From Candidatus Hydrogenedentota bacterium (GTDB lineage: Bacteria; Hydrogenedentota; Hydrogenedentia; Hydrogenedentales; JAEUWI01), in contig JACPGE010000060.1 in NCBI GenBank assembly GCA_016182605.1, forward strand, positions 9,807 to 73,806: a stretch of 64,000 nt of DNA. The letters are read 5' to 3'. Each line of letters begins with the position of its first letter. Position 1 is the first letter of the stretch. Below the pieces are notes generated by a model. The model worked only from the letters and a program-made list of their open reading frames with translations, was not told the DNA's origin and did no database searches. Below, piece by piece: positions 7,459 through 63,603 of the stretch. Both the position numbers and the translations under genes were made by a program.

Positions 7459-7544
7459 TGCCGCCCCGCTTAGAACGGCGGACCAGGAGAAGTCCAACAA
7501 GATCGGTTTTGAGCACCAAGGGCACTATTCTGAACGGCGCTAAC

Positions 7545-7700
7545 ATGTTGCAGTCTCACTCCAATCACGCCGCTCGGCGGGCAACGGGCTACCATTTTGG
7601 CACGCCCAAACAGGCCTTCGCTCGCCGGGCAGCCTGCCACCATTTAGACACGCCACCCAAGTAGGCCTTCGCTCGCCGAGCGTAGGCATTCCGCGTCGAA
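7545..7700. repeat. Partial inverted copy of the interspersed repeat unit (module carrying 'aggccttcgctcgccg' twice)
   Basis: ctcactccaatcacgccgctcggcg...cccaagtaggccttcgctcgccgagcgtaggcattcc matches the reverse complement of 8455..8535 and the left part of 54790..54850. Confidence 0.7.
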
Positions 7701-8143
7701 GTACCTCGTCCCGCACCCCTCTACACACGGCCACACTTCATCACAAAATCCAGATCAATCCGGCTTTCGTAGCTCCCAATTTCAATTGGGAGTTCGAATC
7801 CCAAACCTCTGCGCGCTTACGTCGACGCATTCACGCACACACCCATTGTCATCTCGAACGCAGTGAGAGATCTCCCAAGGGGACTGTACCCGCCGGAAGG
7901 CAATAGGCCTACCCGGCGGAAAGATCTTCCACCGGCGGGGACTGTACCCGGGCCCCAATCACGCACACCCCGCAACCCCAACCACCCTGCTATCCCGAAC
8001 CCTTCCCTGTCATCTCGAACGCAGTGAGAGATCTCCCCGGGGAGCGCCATGCGCCGCGACGTGGACCACAAAAAGCTGGGGCGGTCTTATTTTCCAGGAA
8101 TGTCCGGTCCCTTGGGGCTCAGACATTCCTTATAGTAACCACG

Positions 8144-8213
8144 TTGGTTATCCACAGCCGACAGCAAGGCCACCTCGGTTGGCCTTCGTCGGCTGTCGGG
8201 TGTGGATAACCAA
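8144..8213. repeat. Long imperfect hairpin (about 30-bp stem, 8-nt loop)
   Basis: ttggttatccacagccgacagcaaggcc acctcggt tggccttcgtcggctgtcgggtgtggataaccaa. The outer 13 bp are perfectly complementary. Confidence 0.6.
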
Positions 8214-8368
8214 CCGGCTGGGGATGCAGTATTTCTGGCGTAACCCAAACTCGGTTTGGGCGGCGACGGCTCCTTCCGCGCCCCGCGCATCCCTCCAGCC
8301 GCAAGGACCGGCGCCCGATCCCATTCCCGCGTGTTCGACACCCGCGTCTCCGCCCGTTGATTCTCCAA

Positions 8369-8760
8369 GGAAAATTCGGGGCAGTAACCATTTTTTGCAG
8401 GATTCTCGCCCGGTTGACGGGGTGTAAGCTGGTACCTTGACGAGGAATGCCTATGCTCGGCGAGCGAAGGCCTACTTGGGTGGTGTCTAACAGGTAGCAC
8501 GCTGCTCGCCGAGCGGCGTGATTGGAGTGAGACCGCAAGTGTTAGCCCGCATATTTCACCACTTCAAGGTTTCTTGGCAACGAGTTCGACTTGGAAGATG
8601 GTGAAAAATGCTCAGCGTGGCGATGGTGCTGGCGTTCACCGGGCAGGCTAAATCACGGGCTGTTTGTTATTCCCAAGCTTGAAGTTGGGACAACGATATG
8701 TATGAATGGGTGTTACGACTACATCGTTTGGAGCCCGTGATTTATCCGAGTACACGGTCC
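8369..8760. repeat. Composite copy of the interspersed repeat family (minus orientation relative to the 54790 copy). It carries module R1, the 'gtgaaatatgcggg' module, the 50-bp core and its hairpin partner
   Basis: 8369..8540 is about 85% identical to 9249..9425 (direct). 8546..8662 is the reverse complement of 54905..55082. 8741..8759 (gagcccgtgatttatccg) pairs with 8644..8662 (ggctaaatcacgggctg) to form a 12-bp stem around a ~75-nt loop. Confidence 0.75.
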
Positions 8761-8876
8761 ATGCACCGTATTTCGACACAGGTACAACGCCGGCCGGGCA
8801 GGTGTGGCACGGACGCGGCTGCCAGCGATCCTCCACACTCACCGCTCCCACCCGTTTCGAAACAACATCCCTCATT

Positions 8877-8925
8877 CCCATCCGTGTGCATCGGTGTTCA
8901 TTCGTGGTTTGATTCCCTCAAGAAC
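8877..8925. repeat. Short direct repeat (copy 1 of 2; copy 2 at 9138..9185)
   Basis: cccatccgtgtgcatcggtgt.cat.cgtggtttgattccc is shared by both loci. Copy 1 is followed by an inverted repeat gttcattcgtggt...accacgaatgaac. Confidence 0.6.
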
Positions 8926-9248
8926 CAGGCCATCAATCAGACCACGAATGAACGCCAATACACGCGAATAAGACACAAGAACACGCCGGACCCCATGCCC
9001 ATCCTTCCCATTCCTCTTTCAGTGTGCTCCCTGTGTTCCGTGGTCGGCGAAGCGCTATCCTTAGTCCCCGCCCCGCCCCCGCGTTTCGCAAAGTCCATCC
9101 CGTCCATCAGGTCCATGTAGCCAGTCCACACGCCCCTCCCCATCCGTGTGCATCGGTGTCCATCCGTGGTTGATTCCCCCCAGTACCAACGTTTCGCCCG
9201 CCCTTCAACTCCTTTGCGACTTTGCGGCTTTGCGTGAGACAACTTTCC

Positions 9249-9425
9249 GGGAGAAATTGTGGACAGTAACCATTTTTGCAGGATTCTCTCCTGTTTGACG
9301 GGGTGTAGACAGGCGCTTCGACGTGGAATGCCTGCGCTCGCCGAGAGCGAAGGTCTACATTGGTGGCGTGCTTCATGGCAGCGCGCTGTTCGCCGAGCGG
9401 CGTAACCGGGGCGAGGCGGGAAAAG
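9249..9425. repeat. Second direct copy of repeat module R1
   Basis: gggagaaattgtggacagtaaccatttttgcaggattctc...gacggggtgta...ggaatgcct.cgctcg.cgag.gcgaagg.ctac aligns to 8369..8540. Confidence 0.7.
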
Positions 9426-9573
9426 TAAGCGCCATTCGGAGCGGTCCCCGGCAAAATCGATTGCACCATTTCAACCTTCGCAGACTTTTTCCGCTCTGGC
9501 CTTTGATCGGTGGACCGGGAGAAGCTACAGTAGTGTTGGAATCCTAAAGGCATTGCCAGGAGGCCGACACCCC

Positions 9574-10212
9574 ATGTATCTCTTCGCCGGAACCGCCATT
9601 CTTGCTGCACTGAGCCTGCTGGTCATCGTCAGCCTGATCTGGCGCTGGGCCTCCACGCGCCAGGCCCTGCCGTGCCCCTCCCAGTTCTCCTGGATGCTGG
9701 AAAACCCCCTCATGAACCAGATGGCGGGCGCCACCCGGCTCTTCGACTTCCTCGATCTGCGGCCCGGCATGACGCTTCTCGATGTGGGCTGTGGTCCGGG
9801 CCGCATGACGGTGCCCGGCGCGCTCCGCGTTGGCACGGAAGGCCGCGTTCTCGCGCTCGACATGCAGGAAGCCATGATCCGGAAGGCCCAGAACCGCGCA
9901 CAGCAGGCTGGCCTCACCAACATCGAGTTCATTCTGAAAGGCATGGGTGAGGGGGCGCTCCCAGCGGCATGCTGTGATCGCGCCATCCTGGTTACCGTCC
10001 TCGGCGAAATCCCCGATCGGGCCGCCGCCCTCCGTGGCATCCACACCGCCCTCCGCCCCGGCGGCCGCCTGTGCATTGCGGAGATCCTTCTCGATCCCCA
10101 CTACCAGCCCCGCGCCCGCGTCGAAGCCCTCGCACGCGAGACGGGCTTCACGCTCGGTCCGTATCAGGGCGGCTGGATCTCCTACACACAGATTCTGGAG
10201 AAGCCGGAATAG
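9574..10212 (+). CDS. Class I SAM-dependent methyltransferase with an N-terminal TM anchor
   Basis: RBS CAGGAGG 8 nt before the ATG at 9574. TM helix LFAGTAILAALSLLVIVSLIW. Motif I LLDVGCGPGRMT and the post-I acidic residue (LALDMQEAM). Motif IV-like DRAILVTVL. Confidence 0.75.
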   Translation: MYLFAGTAILAALSLLVIVSLIWRWASTRQALPCPSQFSWMLENPLMNQMAGATRLFDFLDLRPGMTLLDVGCGPGRMTVPGALRVGTEGRVLALDMQEAMIRKAQNRAQQAGLTNIEFILKGMGEGALPAACCDRAILVTVLGEIPDRAAALRGIHTALRPGGRLCIAEILLDPHYQPRARVEALARETGFTLGPYQGGWISYTQILEKPE

Positions 10213-10258
10213 CGGGTTTGGAATCGTTTGGCACGGACAACCCGAGACATGAGCATTT

Positions 10259-11512
10259 TCATGTGCCTTTATCACGAAGTAGACAGTTCTTGACCGAATA
10301 CCAGTCGGCTTGCTCAATGCCTTTGACGAAGGGAATCACTTTCTCGTCGCCAATGAGCCGTTCCCATTTCCTTCTTATGGCACCACGTGCAAGCTCTTCC
10401 ATACGTGAAGCATTGGGATCAACGACAGCCAGTCGATGAGATTCTGAAGAGCATAGCCAATCCAAGAGACGGGCGTTTATGACTTTGTCACCAAAACTGT
10501 ATCCGCATACAACTAGGTAGTCTGTCGTCAGCAGGTTCTGGTGAAACATGACTTGAAGTTCTGCGAAGATTCCATAGTTGTACTCCAGGAGCTTGTTGAA
10601 AGTTCCCATTAACATCAGTGGTCCTCTTACATGCCAGAGTTCGTGCCTTTCACCAAGTTCGTTCCTGGCGTGATAAGGATCGCGGTCCAATGATTTTCCA
10701 ACGCATTGGCTTTGCCATACGGGGCCTGGCGATGGGAACGAGTACCAGTCGACAGAGCCATGCAGTTTAAATATACGAACCTTTGCATTTGAGTGCGACA
10801 GGTCATTCCGGTTCCAGTGCAATACGTTTCCTCTGTGATCGCAGAAACCGTCCGAATACGGAACTCCGAAAGATCGAAAGAGTTCTTCAAGGATGGTGTC
10901 GTGATTCAAAGTGTAAATGTCGATCTTTGAGAGGGATCCATCGCGAGAGGCGGAGAGTAGGAACGACAATGCCCAAAGTCGGTTCGGAGTCTTCCACAAT
11001 TCGTTCTCCACGACATCGCGGATATAGGTGCATACCTCATTCAACAGTGGCGTGAGTTCCCAATTTTCATGCAGTTCACCAGGTTTATGCTGCAGAATTT
11101 TGAGAACAGCCGGCATCTTAAGCAGCTTTTCGTACAACGCCTGAACTGCGGGGTTCTCGTACTCGAAGTGATCGCTGTCTGAAAGCTGACGTGCACAAAA
11201 ATAGAGGTCTTCGTAATTCGTCTGATGCCGCCCAAAGGTCTTGTAGAACTCTGCTTCATTGCTCAGCGAGTGTCGGCCACAGTGAAAAAATCCGTCTACT
11301 TCGTCCTTTAGTATTTGGAGCAGCGCAGTGACTCGAGGAACATATACTTCCTGAGACTCAAAATCTTCGCGAACTCTATCATCAAATTCGTAGTTGCCGC
11401 AGGTGTGCCGTCGGTAGTTCACACCAGCCAGGACTGTGCTCGTCAGGCTCGCCGTTGAAGGCTTTCCAACGGGAATAGATGTTCCCGCGCCGCAGACGAT
11501 GCCAACTCTCAT
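10259..11512 (-). CDS. SIR2-like (sirtuin superfamily, SIR2_2-type) NAD-binding/NADase-like protein
   Basis: Nucleotide-binding loop VGIVCGAGTSIPVGKPS (compare sirtuin GAGIS.E.GIP). Asn motif IYTLNHDTILEE (compare TQNID). Catalytic-His motif KLHGSVDWY (compare sirtuin LHGS). Second Rossmann strand VVCGYSFGDKVIN. The gene GC (~48%) is well below its neighbours (~63%). Its start codon overlaps the stop of the upstream ATPase gene (ATGA). Confidence 0.75.
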   Translation of the reverse strand: MRVGIVCGAGTSIPVGKPSTASLTSTVLAGVNYRRHTCGNYEFDDRVREDFESQEVYVPRVTALLQILKDEVDGFFHCGRHSLSNEAEFYKTFGRHQTNYEDLYFCARQLSDSDHFEYENPAVQALYEKLLKMPAVLKILQHKPGELHENWELTPLLNEVCTYIRDVVENELWKTPNRLWALSFLLSASRDGSLSKIDIYTLNHDTILEELFRSFGVPYSDGFCDHRGNVLHWNRNDLSHSNAKVRIFKLHGSVDWYSFPSPGPVWQSQCVGKSLDRDPYHARNELGERHELWHVRGPLMLMGTFNKLLEYNYGIFAELQVMFHQNLLTTDYLVVCGYSFGDKVINARLLDWLCSSESHRLAVVDPNASRMEELARGAIRRKWERLIGDEKVIPFVKGIEQADWYSVKNCLLRDKGT

Positions 11513-12708
11513 GTGGTCGTTCCCAAAGTATCGTTTTTTCTGTTGGGTCGTACGCTAGAATCCATTGAGTAATTCAGGCCCGTCAATTCCCCACCCACGG
11601 GGACCGTGCTCACCTTGTCCCCCAGCGGATAGGCCTTGTCCCCCGGATAAACAACCCATAAATGCTCCAGTTCCAAATCCTCCAGCGCACTGCGCATCGA
11701 ACGCGTGATCCGCGGCGCGTCGGCGTACTTCACCTCCACGGCCCAGTTCTTGCCCCGATCCTGCCAGAAGAGATCAACCTCGGCGCCGGAGTGCGTGGCC
11801 CAGAAGTAGAGTTCTTCCTTCCGTTTGCCAAGCGCCCGCGTTACGGTCTCCAACGCAAAGCCTTCCCAGGACGCGCCGAGCTTGTTGTGGGTCGCGAGAT
11901 CTCCCGCTGTGCGCGCCGAGAGCAGGGTGTGAAAGAGCCCGGAATCGCGGAAGTAGATCTTGGGCCGTTTGACAAGGCGCTTCCCCACGTTCGCATGCCA
12001 CGGCTGTAACAGCCGGATCATAAAGGTCCCTTCGAGGACGTCCAGGTAGCGCCGGACCGTTGCGTCGGACACGCCGAAGGAACGGGCGAACTCGGAGTAG
12101 TTCATCAACTGGCCATGATAGTGACAGAGCATGGTCCAGAAGCGCCGCAACGCGGCCGCGGGAATATCAATGCCGAGTTGCGGGATGTCACGCTCCAGGA
12201 AGGTGGCCACATACTGCTCGCGCCACAAGTGGCTCGCCGCATCGCTGTCCGCTGTGTATGCGCGCGGCAGCCCGCCCCGCAACCAGAGGGACCGCCAATG
12301 TTCCGTGCCCACGTCTTCGAGCCGGAATCCCCCCAATTCATGGTAGGCAATGCGCCCCGCCAACGACTCTGCCGATTGCCGGATAAGATCCCGCGATGCA
12401 CTGCCCAAGATCAGGTAGCGCTGTCCAGGGCGGGTGTCGACGAGGTGGCGCAACAGGGGGAAGAGGTTGGGAGCCCGCTGTATTTCGTCGATGACGATCA
12501 GACCCGAAAGGGGCTCCAGAGCCAGTTGCGCCTGCTCCATCATGACCGCATCCCGAGGATTTTCCAGATCGAAGAAGTGCGCCGCCGGAAAAGCCCGTGC
12601 AAGACACGTTTTCCCGGCCTGACGCGGCCCCAAGAGAGCAGTCACGGGAAAGTGTTCCAATAAGGCACGAATGGCCTCTGTATCGGCATGCCGGGCTATC
12701 ATAGCCAC
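11509..12708 (-). CDS. P-loop ATPase fused to a PD-(D/E)xK nuclease-like C-terminal domain (AAA_14/DUF4143-like by motif recall)
   Basis: Walker A LLGPRQAGKTCLA and Walker B LIVIDEIQRAPNLF. The C-terminal region GAEVDLFWQDRGKNWAVEVKYADAP has a D...E.K arrangement typical of the restriction-endonuclease fold. 399 aa. Translationally coupled to the SIR2-like gene. Confidence 0.7.
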   Translation of the reverse strand: MAMIARHADTEAIRALLEHFPVTALLGPRQAGKTCLARAFPAAHFFDLENPRDAVMMEQAQLALEPLSGLIVIDEIQRAPNLFPLLRHLVDTRPGQRYLILGSASRDLIRQSAESLAGRIAYHELGGFRLEDVGTEHWRSLWLRGGLPRAYTADSDAASHLWREQYVATFLERDIPQLGIDIPAAALRRFWTMLCHYHGQLMNYSEFARSFGVSDATVRRYLDVLEGTFMIRLLQPWHANVGKRLVKRPKIYFRDSGLFHTLLSARTAGDLATHNKLGASWEGFALETVTRALGKRKEELYFWATHSGAEVDLFWQDRGKNWAVEVKYADAPRITRSMRSALEDLELEHLWVVYPGDKAYPLGDKVSTVPVGGELTGLNYSMDSSVRPNRKNDTLGTTT

Positions 12709-33591: not shown

Positions 33592-34779
33592 TTGGCTTGG
33601 GATCTAAGAAATCAAAAAGCCAACTCTTGGATAGAGGTGAAAGCCGCCGTGCCGCAGACTAAGATTGTATCCGGCGCCGTTCACGGCCTTCGAAGATTCG
33701 GAAGCTTTTGGAAGGCATGTGCCGCACTCTTGCTGGGATCCGTGCTGGCCTTGCTCCTTGTCCTCGCGATCGACTTCGCATGCGGATTCATCTATCAGCG
33801 CAAACCGCCCGTTTTCGCTGAAAAGTCGGTTTCCGGAAGGCCGGTGAGTCTGCCAGACGGCAATCTGGGCTTCCACCTGGTTCCCAACGCGTCTGAACTC
33901 GTGAATCGGACTGCCGGCGCTCAAACCATATACAGCGTTACCTACACGACGGACGCCTGTGGCCGGCGCGTCGTGCCAGCGGCGGCGCATGGCGGCCAAA
34001 GCCAATTCCTGATCTTTTTCGGCTGCTCGTTTACATTTGGGGCTGGGCTGGGAGACAACGATACGCTCCCCAATCAAGTTGCGGCGCTTGCACCGGACTA
34101 CCATGTCTATAACTATGCGTGCGGCGGCTACGGCCCCGCTCAGATGCTCGCCATACTGGAATCTGGCGTCCTCCCCAAAGAGATTCAGGAACCGGCTGGA
34201 ATCGCAGTATATGTACTGCGCCCGGGTCACGTAGCGCGGGTGGTCGGTTCCATGCGGACGACGGCATCGTGGGCACGGCATTTCCCCTATTACGCCATCG
34301 AGGACGATGGCGCCCTGTCGCGGCGGGGAAATTTCGATGAGGACCGCCGGTTTACGAATTGGTATTACAACCTGGCGGGTAAAAGCGGCATCTTGAATTT
34401 GCTCTCCCTCGACTTGCCGCTTTGGTATCGCGAATCCCATTACGCACTCACAGCGCGAGTTCTCATTGAGTCGCGGGACCTCTTCTTGAAGTCATTCAAG
34501 GACGGAAAATTTTATGTCGTTTTTTATCCCGCATGGGACGACTACCGGCTCGTGTATACGCGCATTCTTCCGTATCTCGAAAAAGCAGGCGTCACGGTCT
34601 TGAACTATAACCAGTTGCTCGAGCCAGAACACGACGCCTATTTTCTGCATCCCGTGTATGACCGGCACCCCTCCGCAGTTGCCCATAAACAAGTCGCCGC
34701 GCAACTCGCTCAAGACCTTGACGTGATTCCCCCGCAACAAAGCGAATCGAACGGGTCCGTGACGCCAGACAGCCCGTGA
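33592..34779 (+). CDS. Membrane-anchored SGNH/GDSL-like hydrolase or acyltransferase-accessory-like protein
   Basis: N-terminal TM helix ACAALLLGSVLALLLVLAI. Motif QFLIFFGCSFTFGAG resembles the GDS(L) block. 395 aa. GC lower than the neighbouring genes. Confidence 0.45.
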   Translation: MAWDLRNQKANSWIEVKAAVPQTKIVSGAVHGLRRFGSFWKACAALLLGSVLALLLVLAIDFACGFIYQRKPPVFAEKSVSGRPVSLPDGNLGFHLVPNASELVNRTAGAQTIYSVTYTTDACGRRVVPAAAHGGQSQFLIFFGCSFTFGAGLGDNDTLPNQVAALAPDYHVYNYACGGYGPAQMLAILESGVLPKEIQEPAGIAVYVLRPGHVARVVGSMRTTASWARHFPYYAIEDDGALSRRGNFDEDRRFTNWYYNLAGKSGILNLLSLDLPLWYRESHYALTARVLIESRDLFLKSFKDGKFYVVFYPAWDDYRLVYTRILPYLEKAGVTVLNYNQLLEPEHDAYFLHPVYDRHPSAVAHKQVAAQLAQDLDVIPPQQSESNGSVTPDSP

Positions 34780-34822
34780 TTTAACCTGCCCGCCGAACGC
34801 CAGCACCATCCTCACGCCGAGT
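34770..34822. repeat. Partial copy of the 50-bp repeat core (family 'cagcccgtgatttaacctgcccggtgaacgccagcaccatcgtcacgctga')
   Basis: cagcccgtgatttaacctgcccgccgaacgccagcaccatcctcacgccgag. Same orientation and ~90% identity to 55030..55082. Confidence 0.7.
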
Positions 34823-34857
34823 GCTTGGGCGATACCGCGATCTCGCCGCCAACATCC

Positions 34858-34960
34858 CCGGATCATCTCCGCCTGACGCACTTCCTGGCGCCCGGAATCG
34901 GCCCAGAAGGGTATTCGTGCGGATAGATAAAGCGCCGGATACTGGGATGGAAGCGCCGCC
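34858..34960 (-). pseudogene. Decayed duplicate of the 3' terminus of pncB
   Basis: About 85% nucleotide identity to 37305..37408 (the 3' end of pncB). The minus-strand translation ...YPALYLSARIPFWADSGRQEVRQAEMIRG parallels the PncB C-terminus ...YPHEYPSGLDSGLHEARQAEMIRMKRGK but lacks the stop codon. Confidence 0.7.
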
Positions 34961-35161
34961 GAATGCATAACCCATTGGGGTGAGAACTTGGGGATCGGAA
35001 GTGAAATGCGTGTTCATGTCCGCAATAATCTTCAGGCGTCGTTCACACGTGCGTCGATCAGGAAGGCGGGCCGCGCAATAGTTGATGAATCCCCCGCCAA
35101 TCTGCTATTTTTTGGAAAAGTCCCCTCTAAAAACGCTCTGTATAAAAAAGGATTGGCTGTT

Positions 35162-37246
35162 ATGAAAATGCCGCATACTGTAGCGCTCTGTCTTTTCGTG
35201 GCCAGTCTGGCCATGCCTTCCCTCGAAGCCCAACTCGACGCCTCCGGCGCGCTCGCCGGTCTATCCAGGCTCCAGGACGCGGTCTCGCGCAGGGAGTCCT
35301 CCTCCGACCCAAACTGGGACACCGGCAATGGGGATGCGCGCCGCCTGGAGCCGGGCGAAACCCTCGTGCTTGCAGACATCGATGGGCCCGGGGTGATCAC
35401 GCACTTTTGGAACACGATTGCCACGAAACAGGAACGCTACTCCAAGCTCATTTCGCTGCGCATCTACTGGGACCACGAAGAGCACCCTTCGGTCGAAGCG
35501 CCGCTGGGCGACTTCTTCGGTGTGGGCCACGGCATGGATGTCCCGTTCGAATCCCTGCCGGTGAATGTCTCCTCGGAAGGACGCGCGCGGAATTGTTACT
35601 GGCCCATGCCCTTCCGGAAACATGCGCGCTTCGAAGCAACCAATGAGGGCACGCTGCCCATAGACGCGTTCTACTTCCAGGTCGACTGGGAAAAGCGAAG
35701 CTTCATTGCCGAAGACGAAGCCTACTTCCACGCCTCCTACCGCCAGGAATTCCCCACAGAGATGGGGAAGCGTTTCTTAATCGCCGACATAGAGGGGCGC
35801 GGACACTACGTAGGCACGGTGCAGAGTGTGCGCCAGCGCCTGGATAGCTGGTACGGCGAGGGCGACGACTTCTTCTTCTTGGATGGTGACGAGTCGCCCA
35901 CGCTGCGTGGAACCGGTTCGGAGGACTATTTCCTGGACGCCTGGGGCTTCCGCCTTGCCGACAGCGCGTTCTATGGCGCGCCCATCTACGAGGGCGAGAT
36001 CGTCGGCGGGCGCACGAGCGTCTACCGCTGGCATATTGCCGATCCCGTGCGATTCGCCAAGTCGTTGCGGGTAGAAATTGAGCACGTGGGCCCAACCGTC
36101 AACGATTACTCGCTAGCCCGCGTGGGCTATGGGGAACGCCCTGACGATATGGCCACGGTAGCCTTCTGGTACCAGGTGGAGCCGCACAAGCCCTGGCCAG
36201 CCATGGCGAAGGGGCAGGATCGCCTCTATCCGGGTGGCTTTGAAGACCTGCCTTTTGGCCCGGAGGTAGACGAAAAATTTGCGCGCATCTGGCTCAACAC
36301 GGCCATCGAGGATCGCGTCGGTGCGCCGTCGCCGCTACGCTTTGACAGCGAGATCGCCATGCCCCACCCGATGGAGCTGGAGGTCTTCAATCCAACGGGC
36401 GTTCCCGTGGAAGTGCGGGGAGTATTGCCGGAACGCATCGATTTCACGATTCCAAACGGAAGTTTTCAGGTGGACGTAGCGCCGCGCGAAACGGAGATAG
36501 TGAAGGTGGATTTGCAGGCGCTGGAGCGCGTGGATCTGCGCGGCGCGGCTCCGCTCGGTTTGGAACTCCACCTGCTCTTCAAGCCGGAGGGCGGGGACCC
36601 GATGGAGATGATCCTGCCCCGCAACCTCTATCTGGAGGCGCCCTTTGCGTGCCGGACGGCTCCTGCGTCTCCGCGGGTGGACGGAGATCTGACTGACTGG
36701 ACCGAACTCCCGTTTGTGATGGCGGGCCCGGTAAGAGGCGACGAGGCCGCCGCGCACTGGACCGGTCCAGAAGACAGTTCATTCCGCTTCGGCCTGGCGC
36801 GGGACGAACAATTCGTCTATGTGGCCGTCGATGCCCGGGATGAAGAGCGGGTGAAAGCAGACAACAGCATGCCGTGGCATCAAGACGGGGTCGAGATTCG
36901 CATCAACGCCCAGGCCGATCCGATGCGCAGCGCTTCGAAGGGTCAGGGCGAGTTCAGCGAGATACTGCTCATCGCGGTGCCCAGCGGGGCCGCCGCACCC
37001 TTCAATCCGCGAGCGCTGCCCGAAGGCGTGCAGGCGGTGAATACGGTGCACGCGGGTGGACACCGCACGGAAGTGGCCATTCCCGTGGCTTGGCTGGACG
37101 CGCAGCAGGGCAGTGGCTGGAGCAAGTTCCGCCTAAACGTGACGCTGGACGACACGGATGGCGTACAACTTTGCCAGTTGTGGTGGCGTCCAGACTGGCG
37201 CAAGCGGCTCAGCCACGACGCTTCCGGCACCTTCGTGAAGCAGTAA
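35162..37246 (+). CDS. Secreted DUF2961/GH172-family protein (by motif recall) with a C-terminal CBM9/DOMON-like domain
   Basis: Signal peptide MKMPHTVALCLFVASLAMPSLEAQ. Conserved motifs WYGEGDDFFFLDG and LRGTGSEDYF are typical of the DUF2961/GH172 family. C-terminal DGDLTDWTELPF...HQDGVEIRINA resembles carbohydrate-binding family 9-like folds. Confidence 0.65.
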   Translation: MKMPHTVALCLFVASLAMPSLEAQLDASGALAGLSRLQDAVSRRESSSDPNWDTGNGDARRLEPGETLVLADIDGPGVITHFWNTIATKQERYSKLISLRIYWDHEEHPSVEAPLGDFFGVGHGMDVPFESLPVNVSSEGRARNCYWPMPFRKHARFEATNEGTLPIDAFYFQVDWEKRSFIAEDEAYFHASYRQEFPTEMGKRFLIADIEGRGHYVGTVQSVRQRLDSWYGEGDDFFFLDGDESPTLRGTGSEDYFLDAWGFRLADSAFYGAPIYEGEIVGGRTSVYRWHIADPVRFAKSLRVEIEHVGPTVNDYSLARVGYGERPDDMATVAFWYQVEPHKPWPAMAKGQDRLYPGGFEDLPFGPEVDEKFARIWLNTAIEDRVGAPSPLRFDSEIAMPHPMELEVFNPTGVPVEVRGVLPERIDFTIPNGSFQVDVAPRETEIVKVDLQALERVDLRGAAPLGLELHLLFKPEGGDPMEMILPRNLYLEAPFACRTAPASPRVDGDLTDWTELPFVMAGPVRGDEAAAHWTGPEDSSFRFGLARDEQFVYVAVDARDEERVKADNSMPWHQDGVEIRINAQADPMRSASKGQGEFSEILLIAVPSGAAAPFNPRALPEGVQAVNTVHAGGHRTEVAIPVAWLDAQQGSGWSKFRLNVTLDDTDGVQLCQLWWRPDWRKRLSHDASGTFVKQ

Positions 37247-37286
37247 GGCTTAATTGAGCGCGCATGCGAACACTCGCCCTCATGAT

Positions 37287-38756
37287 TCATTTCCCCCGCT
37301 TCATCCGGATCATCTCCGCCTGACGCGCCTCGTGGAGCCCGGAATCGAGCCCGGAAGGATATTCATGGGGATAGATAAAACGCCGGATGCTCGGATGAAA
37401 CCGGCGCAAGTCATCGAAGGCGTGCTGGCGGATCTCGTGGATGCTCGGGGGCTCGTACACAAGGTGGCCCTGCTCGAAGATGGGCAAGAGTAAGTCAAAG
37501 CTCTTCGCATCCGGGGCTATGGTCTTTGTGCGGAAAGGGTTCATCGGATCCACCAGCGTCGTCGGCTCCGCTATCCCGTTACGCTCATCATAGATGCAGT
37601 CGCCCAGATATGTATCGCCGCGCCGGAACCGCCGGACGTTCAAAATGCCAGGAATGGAGTTCTTCGCCGCCTGCTCCGAAAGTTTGACCTTGTTTACCCA
37701 CTCCCCGGCGTCGTCCCGCACCGCCGCCAATTTGTAGACCGCGCCCAGCGCCGGCTGATCATACGCCGTGATCAATTTCGTCCCCACGCCCCACACCGCG
37801 ATGGTCGCGCCCTGATCCTTGAGCGAGCTAATAATGTGTTCGTCCAAGTCGTTCGAAGCAATGATACGCGTGTCCTGAAACCCCGCTTCATCCAGCAACT
37901 TGCGCGCTTCGATCGAGAGATAGGCCAAGTCGCCCGAATCCAGCCGGATACCGGCAAACTGATACCCCTTCTCGCGCAGCCGCTGCCCCGCCGCGATCGC
38001 GTTGCGCACCCCTCCCAGCGTGTCGTACGTGTCCACCAGAAACACGCAGTTGTTCGGCATGACCTCCGCATACGTCTCAAACGCCTGCAACTCGTCCGGA
38101 AAGAGCATCACCCAGGAATGGGCGTGCGTGCCGCGAACAGGAATACCGTAAATACGGCCCGCCAATACATTCGAGGTCGCAAAGCACCCGCCAATATACG
38201 CCGCACGGCTCGCCGCCAGGCCGCCATCGATTCCCTGTGCCCGGCGCAGCCCGAATTCCAGCACGGGATCCCCCTGGGCCGCATGGCAGACCCGCGCCGC
38301 CTTCGTGGCCACCAGGCTCTGGAAACCCACGATCGTGAGCAAGGCCGTCTCCAAAAGTTGCCCCTGAAGTATCGGACCCTGGATCCGCAACAATGGCTCC
38401 TGTGGAAAGACCGCGGCGCCTTCCGGAACCCCCTTCACACTGCACGAAAAGCGCAGGGCAAGCAAATACTCCAGAAAATCCTGCGAAAAAAGGGGCGCGC
38501 CATCGTTGCCGTTCAGCGTCCCCAGATAGGTCACATCGTCTTCGTCGAAGTGAAAATCCTGCAAATACTCGATCACCGTGCCCAGGCCGCACGCAAGCGT
38601 ATAGCCCGAGTTGAACGGCGGATGCCGGAACGCCAAATTGAAGATCGCCTCGCGCTCCGCCAGACCGGACTTCCAATAGGAATACGCCATCGTAATCTGG
38701 TAAAGATCGGTCAGCAGGGCCAATGAAGGCCGGTAGATCTCTCGCAATGCACTCAT
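37287..38756 (-). CDS. pncB: Nicotinate phosphoribosyltransferase
   Basis: MSALREIYRPSLALLTDLYQITMAYSYWKSG...GTHAHSWVM...IRLDSGDLAYLS. Collinear with the NAPRTase family. 489 aa. Confidence 0.9.
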   Translation of the reverse strand: MSALREIYRPSLALLTDLYQITMAYSYWKSGLAEREAIFNLAFRHPPFNSGYTLACGLGTVIEYLQDFHFDEDDVTYLGTLNGNDGAPLFSQDFLEYLLALRFSCSVKGVPEGAAVFPQEPLLRIQGPILQGQLLETALLTIVGFQSLVATKAARVCHAAQGDPVLEFGLRRAQGIDGGLAASRAAYIGGCFATSNVLAGRIYGIPVRGTHAHSWVMLFPDELQAFETYAEVMPNNCVFLVDTYDTLGGVRNAIAAGQRLREKGYQFAGIRLDSGDLAYLSIEARKLLDEAGFQDTRIIASNDLDEHIISSLKDQGATIAVWGVGTKLITAYDQPALGAVYKLAAVRDDAGEWVNKVKLSEQAAKNSIPGILNVRRFRRGDTYLGDCIYDERNGIAEPTTLVDPMNPFRTKTIAPDAKSFDLLLPIFEQGHLVYEPPSIHEIRQHAFDDLRRFHPSIRRFIYPHEYPSGLDSGLHEARQAEMIRMKRGK

Positions 38757-52388: not shown

Positions 52389-52528
52389 TCCCGGATAAAT
52401 CACGGGCTCCACGTATTCGTGTCATAACCCCTTTTCTCGTCTGTCATTGCCACAACATGCACGGCGGCATCGCCAGACAGCCCGCGCTTTAGCCTGCCCG
52501 GTGAACGCCAGCGCCATCGTCACGCTGA
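52389..52528. repeat. Interspersed repeat copy (hairpin-partner module + loop + 50-bp core). Left member of a near-identical inverted pair with 63490..63603
   Basis: 52389..52460 differs from the reverse complement of 63531..63603 at a single position (tattcgtg vs tatttgtg). A further ~40 bp is ~70% identical. 52478..52528 is a core copy (cagcccgcgctttagcctgcccggtgaacgccagcgccatcgtcacgctga). Confidence 0.8.
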
Positions 52529-54789: not shown

Positions 54790-55085
54790 CCGTCGGCCTT
54801 GCCGGAAGTAGGCCTTCGCTCGCCGGGCGCAGGTATGGGCGCTTTCCGTGCGGAGCCCAAGTGCGGGCGTGGAGTATGCCCTCGGGCAGGCAGTGGAGCG
54901 CGTTGCCCACAAGTTTTGAAGTGGTGAAATATGCGGGTTAGCCCGGATAAATCACGGGCTCCAGCCGACGGAGCCATAACTCTCACTCACACTTGCTGTT
55001 GCCCAAACCTTGGATCCGGAAACAACAGACAGCCCGTGATTTAACCTGCCCGGTGAACGCCAGCACCATCGTCACGCTGAGCAGT
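54790..55085. repeat. Most complete copy of the interspersed repeat family (about 295 bp; plus orientation)
   Basis: Modules in order: aggccttcgctcgccgggc ; ttgaagtggtgaaatatgcgggttagc ; cccggataaatcacgggctcc ; ~70-nt loop ; cagcccgtgatttaacctgcccggtgaacgccagcaccatcgtcacgctgagca. The stem aaatcacgggct/agcccgtgattt forms a 12-bp hairpin. Confidence 0.8.
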
Positions 55086-63489: not shown

Positions 63490-63603
63490 GCCGGAGCGAG
63501 CCAATCGCGGGCTGTCCGGCAATTCCACTGTGCATGTTGTGGCAATGACAGACGAGAAAAGGGGTTATGACACAAATACGTGGAGCCCGTGATTTATCCG
63601 GGC
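63490..63603. repeat. Interspersed repeat copy. Right (inverted) member of the near-identical pair with 52389..52500
   Basis: The reverse complement of 63531..63603 equals 52389..52460 with 1 mismatch. Confidence 0.8.

Follow-up and report, generated by a model that had tools for sequence, protein, structure and literature searches.

A displaced pncB 3' end beside a GH172 gene in a Candidatus Hydrogenedentota bacterium: a probable recombination scar

How did a second copy of the end of pncB come to lie on the far side of a single carbohydrate-active gene? The question is raised by a 64,000-nt stretch of contig JACPGE010000060.1 (assembly GCA_016182605.1), a metagenome-assembled genome (MAG) of a Candidatus Hydrogenedentota bacterium. 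We call the whole stretch the window and give all positions in its coordinates. The window contains an intact gene of NAD salvage, pncB, for nicotinate phosphoribosyltransferase, next to it a GH172/DUF2961 gene, and beyond the latter a 102-nt fragment of the pncB 3' end, below called the orphan. We consider it probable, at about 0.62, that the GH172 gene was brought in by DNA with a pncB tail of its own, which recombined at the 3' end of pncB.

The repeat pair and its substitution pattern

The orphan (copy B; 34858..34959, minus strand) and its counterpart inside pncB (copy A; 37305..37407, minus strand) are direct repeats, both corresponding to PncB residues 451-484. They are identical at 88 of 103 alignment columns (85.4%; blastn E ~1e-27 within the window), the upstream copy having a 1-nt deletion between 34900 and 34901. 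A sequence-only reading of the window, made before this analysis, had reported a repeat of ~103 bp and ~85% identity here, with coordinates that proved correct to within 1 nt. In the window, a 22-mer taken from the repeat is present exactly twice, while no occurrences were expected (100 shuffles), and neither blastn nor tblastn found a third pncB fragment in the 64 kb.

The downstream copy is indeed, as that reading had it, the 3' end of pncB (37287..38756, minus strand). This gene encodes a full-length protein of 489 aa, which matches the Pfam families NAPRTase_N, NAPRTase, and NAPRTase_C and the NCBIfam equivalog NF006695 (565 bits at a cut-off of 469), the latter match extending to residue 484 of 489. 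Copy A is followed by five more codons (MKRGK) and by the stop codon, together at 37287-37304. Residues L474 and H475 agree with the consensus of the homologues. Hence, pncB has kept its full length, as expected if an element-borne tail restored the target gene.

The orphan is read in two frames. Upstream of the frameshift it encodes RRFHPSIRRFIYPHEYPSG, identical at 19 of 19 residues to PncB 451-469. The other frame, which encodes AEMIR, has no stop codon and remains open to 34492, antisense into the left-hand gene; for this frame, the earlier claim that the upstream copy has lost its stop codon is correct. No start-codon-initiated open reading frame (ORF) in the pncB frame covers the orphan, and the small ORFs across it have no Pfam match. 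As the conserved part lies in no start-codon ORF, selection acting on a peptide at present does not explain the conservation of the orphan.

The differences between the copies are distributed over three zones. Zone 1 (orphan 34902-34958, PncB 451-469) has ten differences, all of them synonymous and at third codon positions, so that the synonymous divergence (pS, the proportion of synonymous sites that differ) is 10/13.7 = 0.73 and essentially saturated, while none of the ~43 nonsynonymous sites has changed. Zone 2 (orphan 34880-34901, PncB 470-477) contains the 1-nt deletion, the replacements L474R, H475Q, and A477V, and one synonymous change. Zone 3 (orphan 34858-34879, PncB 478-484, RQAEMIR) is a block of 22 nt without any difference. 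Over the whole repeat, third codon positions account for 12 of the 14 substitutions (P = 8e-5). If the 3' end had been duplicated in place and the orphan had drifted since, ~39% of the differences would be expected to be synonymous, and ten of ten has P = 7e-5.

The codon-periodic and almost wholly synonymous differences mean that the tails diverged while each of them was part of a working pncB. Judged by this pattern, the two tails are alternative alleles of pncB, and purifying selection acted on both as they diverged. Both carry residues that 120 homologues lack or rarely have, namely S468 and E481 (0/120 each) and Y462 (4/120); therefore, the second allele came from a related lineage rather than from a distant phylum. 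Codon usage and the GC content of third codon positions (GC3) of the two tails were compared with those of the pncB body, but the tails are too short for the native one to be assigned in this way.

Genuine decay is limited to zone 2, that is, to ~24 nt with the frameshift, L474R, and H475Q: L474 is invariant in 120 of 120 homologues, and glutamine was never seen at position 475. The sequence-only reading had described the whole upstream copy as decaying, which holds for these ~24 nt but not for zone 1 with its unchanged peptide. The orphan would have been displaced recently enough for zone 1 to show no neutral damage, with an upper bound of ~0.07 substitutions per site. In this way, the substitution pattern alone, with no relatives at hand, allows one to date a short orphan gene tail and to suggest its source, and it separates a foreign allele displaced by recombination from a decaying local duplicate.

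Probable recombination at the pncB 3' end

We suggest the following course of events. The incoming DNA would have carried the GH172-CBM9 gene together with its own diverged pncB 3' end, and would have recombined at the 3' end of the chromosomal pncB. This would leave one complete pncB and, across the insert, a displaced, untranslated pncB tail of 102 nt; either tail may be the native one. The most likely site of exchange would be the 22-nt identical block, which forms the 3' end of the repeat and has no obvious dyad symmetry.

Two routes could have led to this outcome. The first is host recombination, either as a Campbell-type insertion of a small circle or as homology-facilitated illegitimate recombination (HFIR) of a donor fragment in which the GH172 gene already lay beside pncB. 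We hold this route to be possible, at somewhat less than even odds, and weight it slightly higher than the other, because the insert has exactly one gene, flanks of normal size, no debris, and a native-like composition. The second, tentative and on balance unlikely, is the integration of an element with a site-specific integrase, which would since have been reduced to an integrase-less remnant flanked by attachment (att) sites, resembling the cis-mobilizable elements (CIMEs) discussed below and having the geometry of e14 in icd.

The locus is of a known kind, a scar that recombination leaves at a housekeeping gene's 3' end, as seen for e14 and icd, and points to no new mechanism. The prophage e14 integrates in icd and brings a replacement 3' end, with the original end remaining on the prophage's far side (PMC6379469, PMC13626634). 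We compared icd and the pseudogene icdC, which flank e14 in E. coli K-12 MG1655, and found 153 of 165 positions identical; of the 12 differences, 11 are at third positions, and ten are synonymous, the remaining two being conservative D>E replacements. Like e14 (and phage 21), the pncB locus has acquired DNA between two direct repeats of a housekeeping gene's 3' end, the gene itself is intact, and the tails differ mostly by synonymous third-position changes. This shared signature and geometry lend support to an integration-type origin.

On the other hand, e14 is 15.2 kb long and carries intE and xisE, whereas the insert at pncB is 2.3 kb long and has one gene and no recombinase. The icdC homology runs through the stop codon and its tail is intact in frame, whereas the pncB orphan is frameshifted and its homology ends six codons before the stop. 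Moreover, the synonymous divergence in one part of the pncB repeat (pS 0.73) is far higher than that between icd and icdC, and the repeat has its longest block of identity at the 3' end, unlike the e14 core. The earlier suggestion of an integration that restores its target gene therefore stands as far as the icd/icdC-like pattern and the restored pncB are concerned, while its site-specific nature is not shown, no recombinase lying in the insert or within ~10 kb of it.

CIMEs are decayed remnants of ICEs (integrative and conjugative elements) or IMEs (integrative and mobilizable elements) which keep attL and attR and lack the genes for integration and transfer, as for instance at the 3' end of streptococcal fda (PMC5704250). 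Similarly to them, the pncB locus has its cargo between att-like direct repeats where a protein-coding gene has its 3' end, and it has no integrase of its own. However, CIMEs are recognised via related intact ICEs with the same att site in the same species, and here neither such an element nor an integrase nor a shared att site was found. In HFIR, which like Campbell-type insertion takes place in transformation or conjugation, one homologous anchor and one illegitimate joint can add foreign DNA beside the anchor, with no element-encoded enzyme (PMC3240628). Both HFIR and Campbell-type insertion fit a one-gene insert without debris, with pncB as the anchor. At the same time, HFIR is defined experimentally and requires the parental sequences, and HFIR alone does not predict the 22-nt identical block.

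What would be new at this locus is pncB as a recombination anchor and a single carbohydrate-active gene as the cargo; a literature search on pncB as an att site returned nothing relevant, and we found no paper giving pncB this role. The locus would then be the record of a secreted GH172 enzyme being gained, or moved, to a place beside an SGNH-fold esterase in an uncultured Hydrogenedentes bacterium.

Points against recombination and competing explanations

Several observations weigh against recombination with incoming DNA. First, no integrase, transposase, or other recombinase family was found in the 2.3-kb insert or within ~10 kb on each side, where the Pfam families of 19 other called genes were scanned; the earlier remark that the cargo comes with no recombinase thus extends to its surroundings. 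Among other leads to a mobile element, the 22-mer, pncB, and the GH172 gene had no matches in viral contigs, and the window contains no tRNA and no match to an Rfam family.

Second, neither an empty site nor a donor was found in the collections searched. A search of one genome per GTDB species with pncB gave 80 loci, the best at 67% identity, with no common neighbours, and a set of 5.8 billion proteins gave at most 66% identity. It speaks for recombination, however, that within 10 kb of the 80 pncB loci from other species there is no second pncB, pncB fragment, or GH172 gene. In metagenome contigs, a degenerate DNA pattern for FIYPHEYPSG from zone 1 had 0 matches, and 0 relatives of the SGNH-like neighbour were found. 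The failure to find an empty site is explained by the distance of the nearest pncB homologue, which is only 66-67% identical and retains no synteny. Also in favour of recombination, orthologues of the GH172-CBM9 protein (45-59% identity) lie in five unrelated neighbourhoods, none of them beside pncB among the five contexts examined.

Third, the composition of the GH172 gene (GC 0.627, GC3 0.76) is inside the range of its neighbours, and the family is common in Hydrogenedentes MAGs; for both reasons the foreignness of the gene is not shown. Fourth, in its original frame the orphan lacks a stop codon, and its homology, in contrast to that of icdC, falls six codons short of the pncB stop. A further rearrangement to its left must therefore be assumed, in which the native tail and stop would have been lost; the dispersed repeat 36 nt away makes this assumption plausible.

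Finally, a single crossover predicts uniform divergence along the repeat, whereas at synonymous sites zone 1 is saturated and zones 2-3 have hardly changed. The synonymous divergence of zones 2-3 is low (1 of ~9.7 sites), and the complete identity of zone 3 is improbable in view of the synonymous divergence (P 0.002-0.05). This unevenness needs a site-specific identity core, heteroduplex repair at the junction, or later gene conversion.

As a separate observation on pncB tails, in the Verrucomicrobia MAG contig JAEWBF010000133.1 the terminal ~50 nt of pncB recur at four places in a 3-kb stretch, with ~90% identity (9690-9744, 11673-11711, 12248-12296, and 12421-12446 of that contig). In that species, it is a dispersed local repeat that overlaps the tail of pncB; the sequence is unrelated to that of the present locus, and the phenomenon is a different one.

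Of the competing explanations, the one that survives best, although we regard it as unlikely, takes the orphan for the relic of a neighbouring pncB paralogue. Two tandem pncB genes would have been functional for a long time, until the body of the left one was replaced by the GH172 gene, with no foreign pncB DNA involved. This would account equally well for the codon-periodic differences and for the lineage-specific residues common to both tails, and it agrees with the native-like composition of the GH172 gene. However, such a tandem would be without parallel at the 80 loci of other species (a second pncB or a fragment within 10 kb at none of them), the GH172 gene would still have to be inserted or to replace the paralogue, which makes for more steps, and the 22-nt identical block and the low synonymous divergence of zones 2-3 would be left unexplained.

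We give little credence to a bolder possibility, that of a minimal, integrase-free, single-gene cassette which attaches at the pncB 3' end and depends for its movement, in trans, on a recombinase from another locus of Hydrogenedentes genomes. If this were true, repeated integration would keep the cassette-borne mimic of pncB under selection at the protein level, and the conserved peptide, the saturated synonymous sites, and the identical 22-nt core would all be explained.

It is highly improbable that the arrangement is an artefact of metagenome assembly, in which a piece of the pncB allele of a second strain ended up in the contig. In its favour, the sequence comes from a MAG, co-occurring strains could in principle be the owners of the two alleles, and a 22-nt block of identity suits the collapse of an assembly graph. 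Nevertheless, two chimeric joints would be needed around a piece of 102 nt, and an artefact of a single assembly is made unlikely by a separate Logan assembly of SRR12113422, which reproduces the arrangement. Positions 27287-48756 of the window are colinear with it, with two mismatches in 21,470 nt, and both of these (31306 and 31312) lie outside the orphan-GH172-pncB region. Exact-protein look-ups for pncB and the GH172 gene returned the same contig arrangement only, and no other contexts for either.

An equally slight chance is left to the segment being an element kept for its own sake, for example an antisense regulator of the pncB mRNA on transcripts that read through into GH172, or a member of a repeat family. 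The perfect conservation of zone 3, the complementarity of a plus-strand transcript to the pncB 3' end, and the presence of a true dispersed repeat 36 nt away would agree with it. The conservation, however, tracks the codon frame of pncB rather than a base-pairing or motif pattern, the segment has no Rfam match, and the sole promoter-like site, a sigma-70-like match at 35001-35029 between the orphan and the GH172 gene, is downstream of the segment and scores no more than shuffles give. Neither does the 103-nt segment resemble a dispersed family of the repetitive extragenic palindrome (REP) or miniature inverted-repeat transposable element (MITE) type, with many copies at unrelated loci, as the 64-kb window holds just two copies of it.

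The weakest explanation, a segmental duplication of the pncB 3' end in situ (e.g., as a long target duplication) followed by neutral decay of the upstream copy, which the sequence-only reading had allowed for, would fit the direct repeats and a frameshift, L474R, and H475Q seen in no functional homologue, but is refuted by zone 1: had the orphan drifted for the time that its saturated synonymous sites suggest, about half of the 43 nonsynonymous sites would be expected to have changed, and none has (ten of ten differences synonymous, P = 7e-5).

The cargo gene, its neighbours, and other repeats

The GH172/DUF2961 glycoside hydrolase gene (35162..37246, plus strand) is the one called gene between the repeats, in agreement with the earlier description of a single secreted protein of this family with a CBM9-like tail. 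Its product of 694 aa has an N-terminal hydrophobic leader (MKMPHTVALCLFVASLAMPSLEAQ) and a C-terminal CBM9_1 domain. It matches PF11175 with E = 1e-80 and 271 bits (cut-off 27), the CBM9_1 tail scores 28 bits (cut-off 23.4), and precomputed matches to GH172_1st, GH172_dom, and GH172_2nd are on record for the protein. The rest of the insert contains no pseudogene debris in the 200 nt upstream and the 40 nt downstream of the gene. The former (34960..35161, plus strand) is non-coding, leads from the orphan to the start of GH172, and is similar neither to pncB nor to any other sequence of the window; the latter is a 40-nt spacer (37247..37286) that separates the convergent stop codons of GH172 and pncB.

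The left neighbour of the orphan (33649..34779, plus strand) encodes a protein of 376 aa with no sequence match in Pfam, NCBIfam, or the PDB. The earlier call of an SGNH-like protein is supported by structure prediction: the AlphaFold model, of high confidence with a predicted local distance difference test score (pLDDT) of 92.5, matches PDB structures of GDSL/SGNH esterases and of acetyl-xylan esterases (lowest E 2e-7), and the predicted fold comprises a long N-terminal helix and a beta-sandwich. An alignment of 22 homologues has an invariant serine in a GxSFxFG block and a D-x-H pair. In the protein set, homologues are rare and patchy, with at most 45% identity, and come from Chloroflexi and Thermoanaerobaculia MAGs. 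The GC3 of the gene, 0.65, is the lowest of 18 neighbouring genes. The SGNH-like gene may itself have been horizontally acquired.

At 34766..34821 (plus strand), one copy of a 56-nt repeat (CAGACAGCCCGTGATTTAACCTGCCCGGTGAACGCCAGCACCATCGTCACGCTGAG), which is intergenic and dispersed, overlaps the SGNH-like gene and provides its stop codon. It is 86-93% identical to copies at 52471-52528 (plus strand), 55026-55081 (plus strand), and 8611-8666 (minus strand), and a degenerate copy is found near 63503-63560 (minus strand). All copies except that at 34766 have in common an additional upstream part of ~50 nt. Each copy is oriented as the next downstream gene, and these genes are unrelated, encoding an Asp-Al_Ex permease, a TetR protein, a PilT-like ATPase, and the GH172 protein. 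There is no Rfam match and no covariation that would point to a structured RNA. A sigma-54-like reading of the repeat, made by eye, was dropped because its orientation was inconsistent among the copies.

The sequence-only reading had placed a core repeat immediately beside the upstream pncB copy. The repeat is real, but 36 unmatched nt separate its end, at 34821, from the orphan, the left boundary of which it does not define. Still, its presence shows that the region left of the orphan has been remodelled.

Other parts of the window contain further repeats. The upstream part of the 56-nt family is extended by a 100-nt inverted repeat, the arms of which, at 52390-52489 and 63503-63602, are 93% complementary and 11 kb apart. 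At 7500-9500, ~2 kb of mostly non-coding DNA carries dense direct and inverted repeats, including one copy of the 56-nt repeat, a 73-nt repeat at 8392/9273, a 35-nt repeat at 7847/8008, and inverted pairs of 56-63 nt at 7548-7705 / 8431-8538. Next to this region, at ~9500-12500, lies a defence-like cluster, which comprises genes for a HicB-like antitoxin, an AAA_14/DUF4143 ATPase, and a SIR2_2-domain protein (10259-11512, minus strand).

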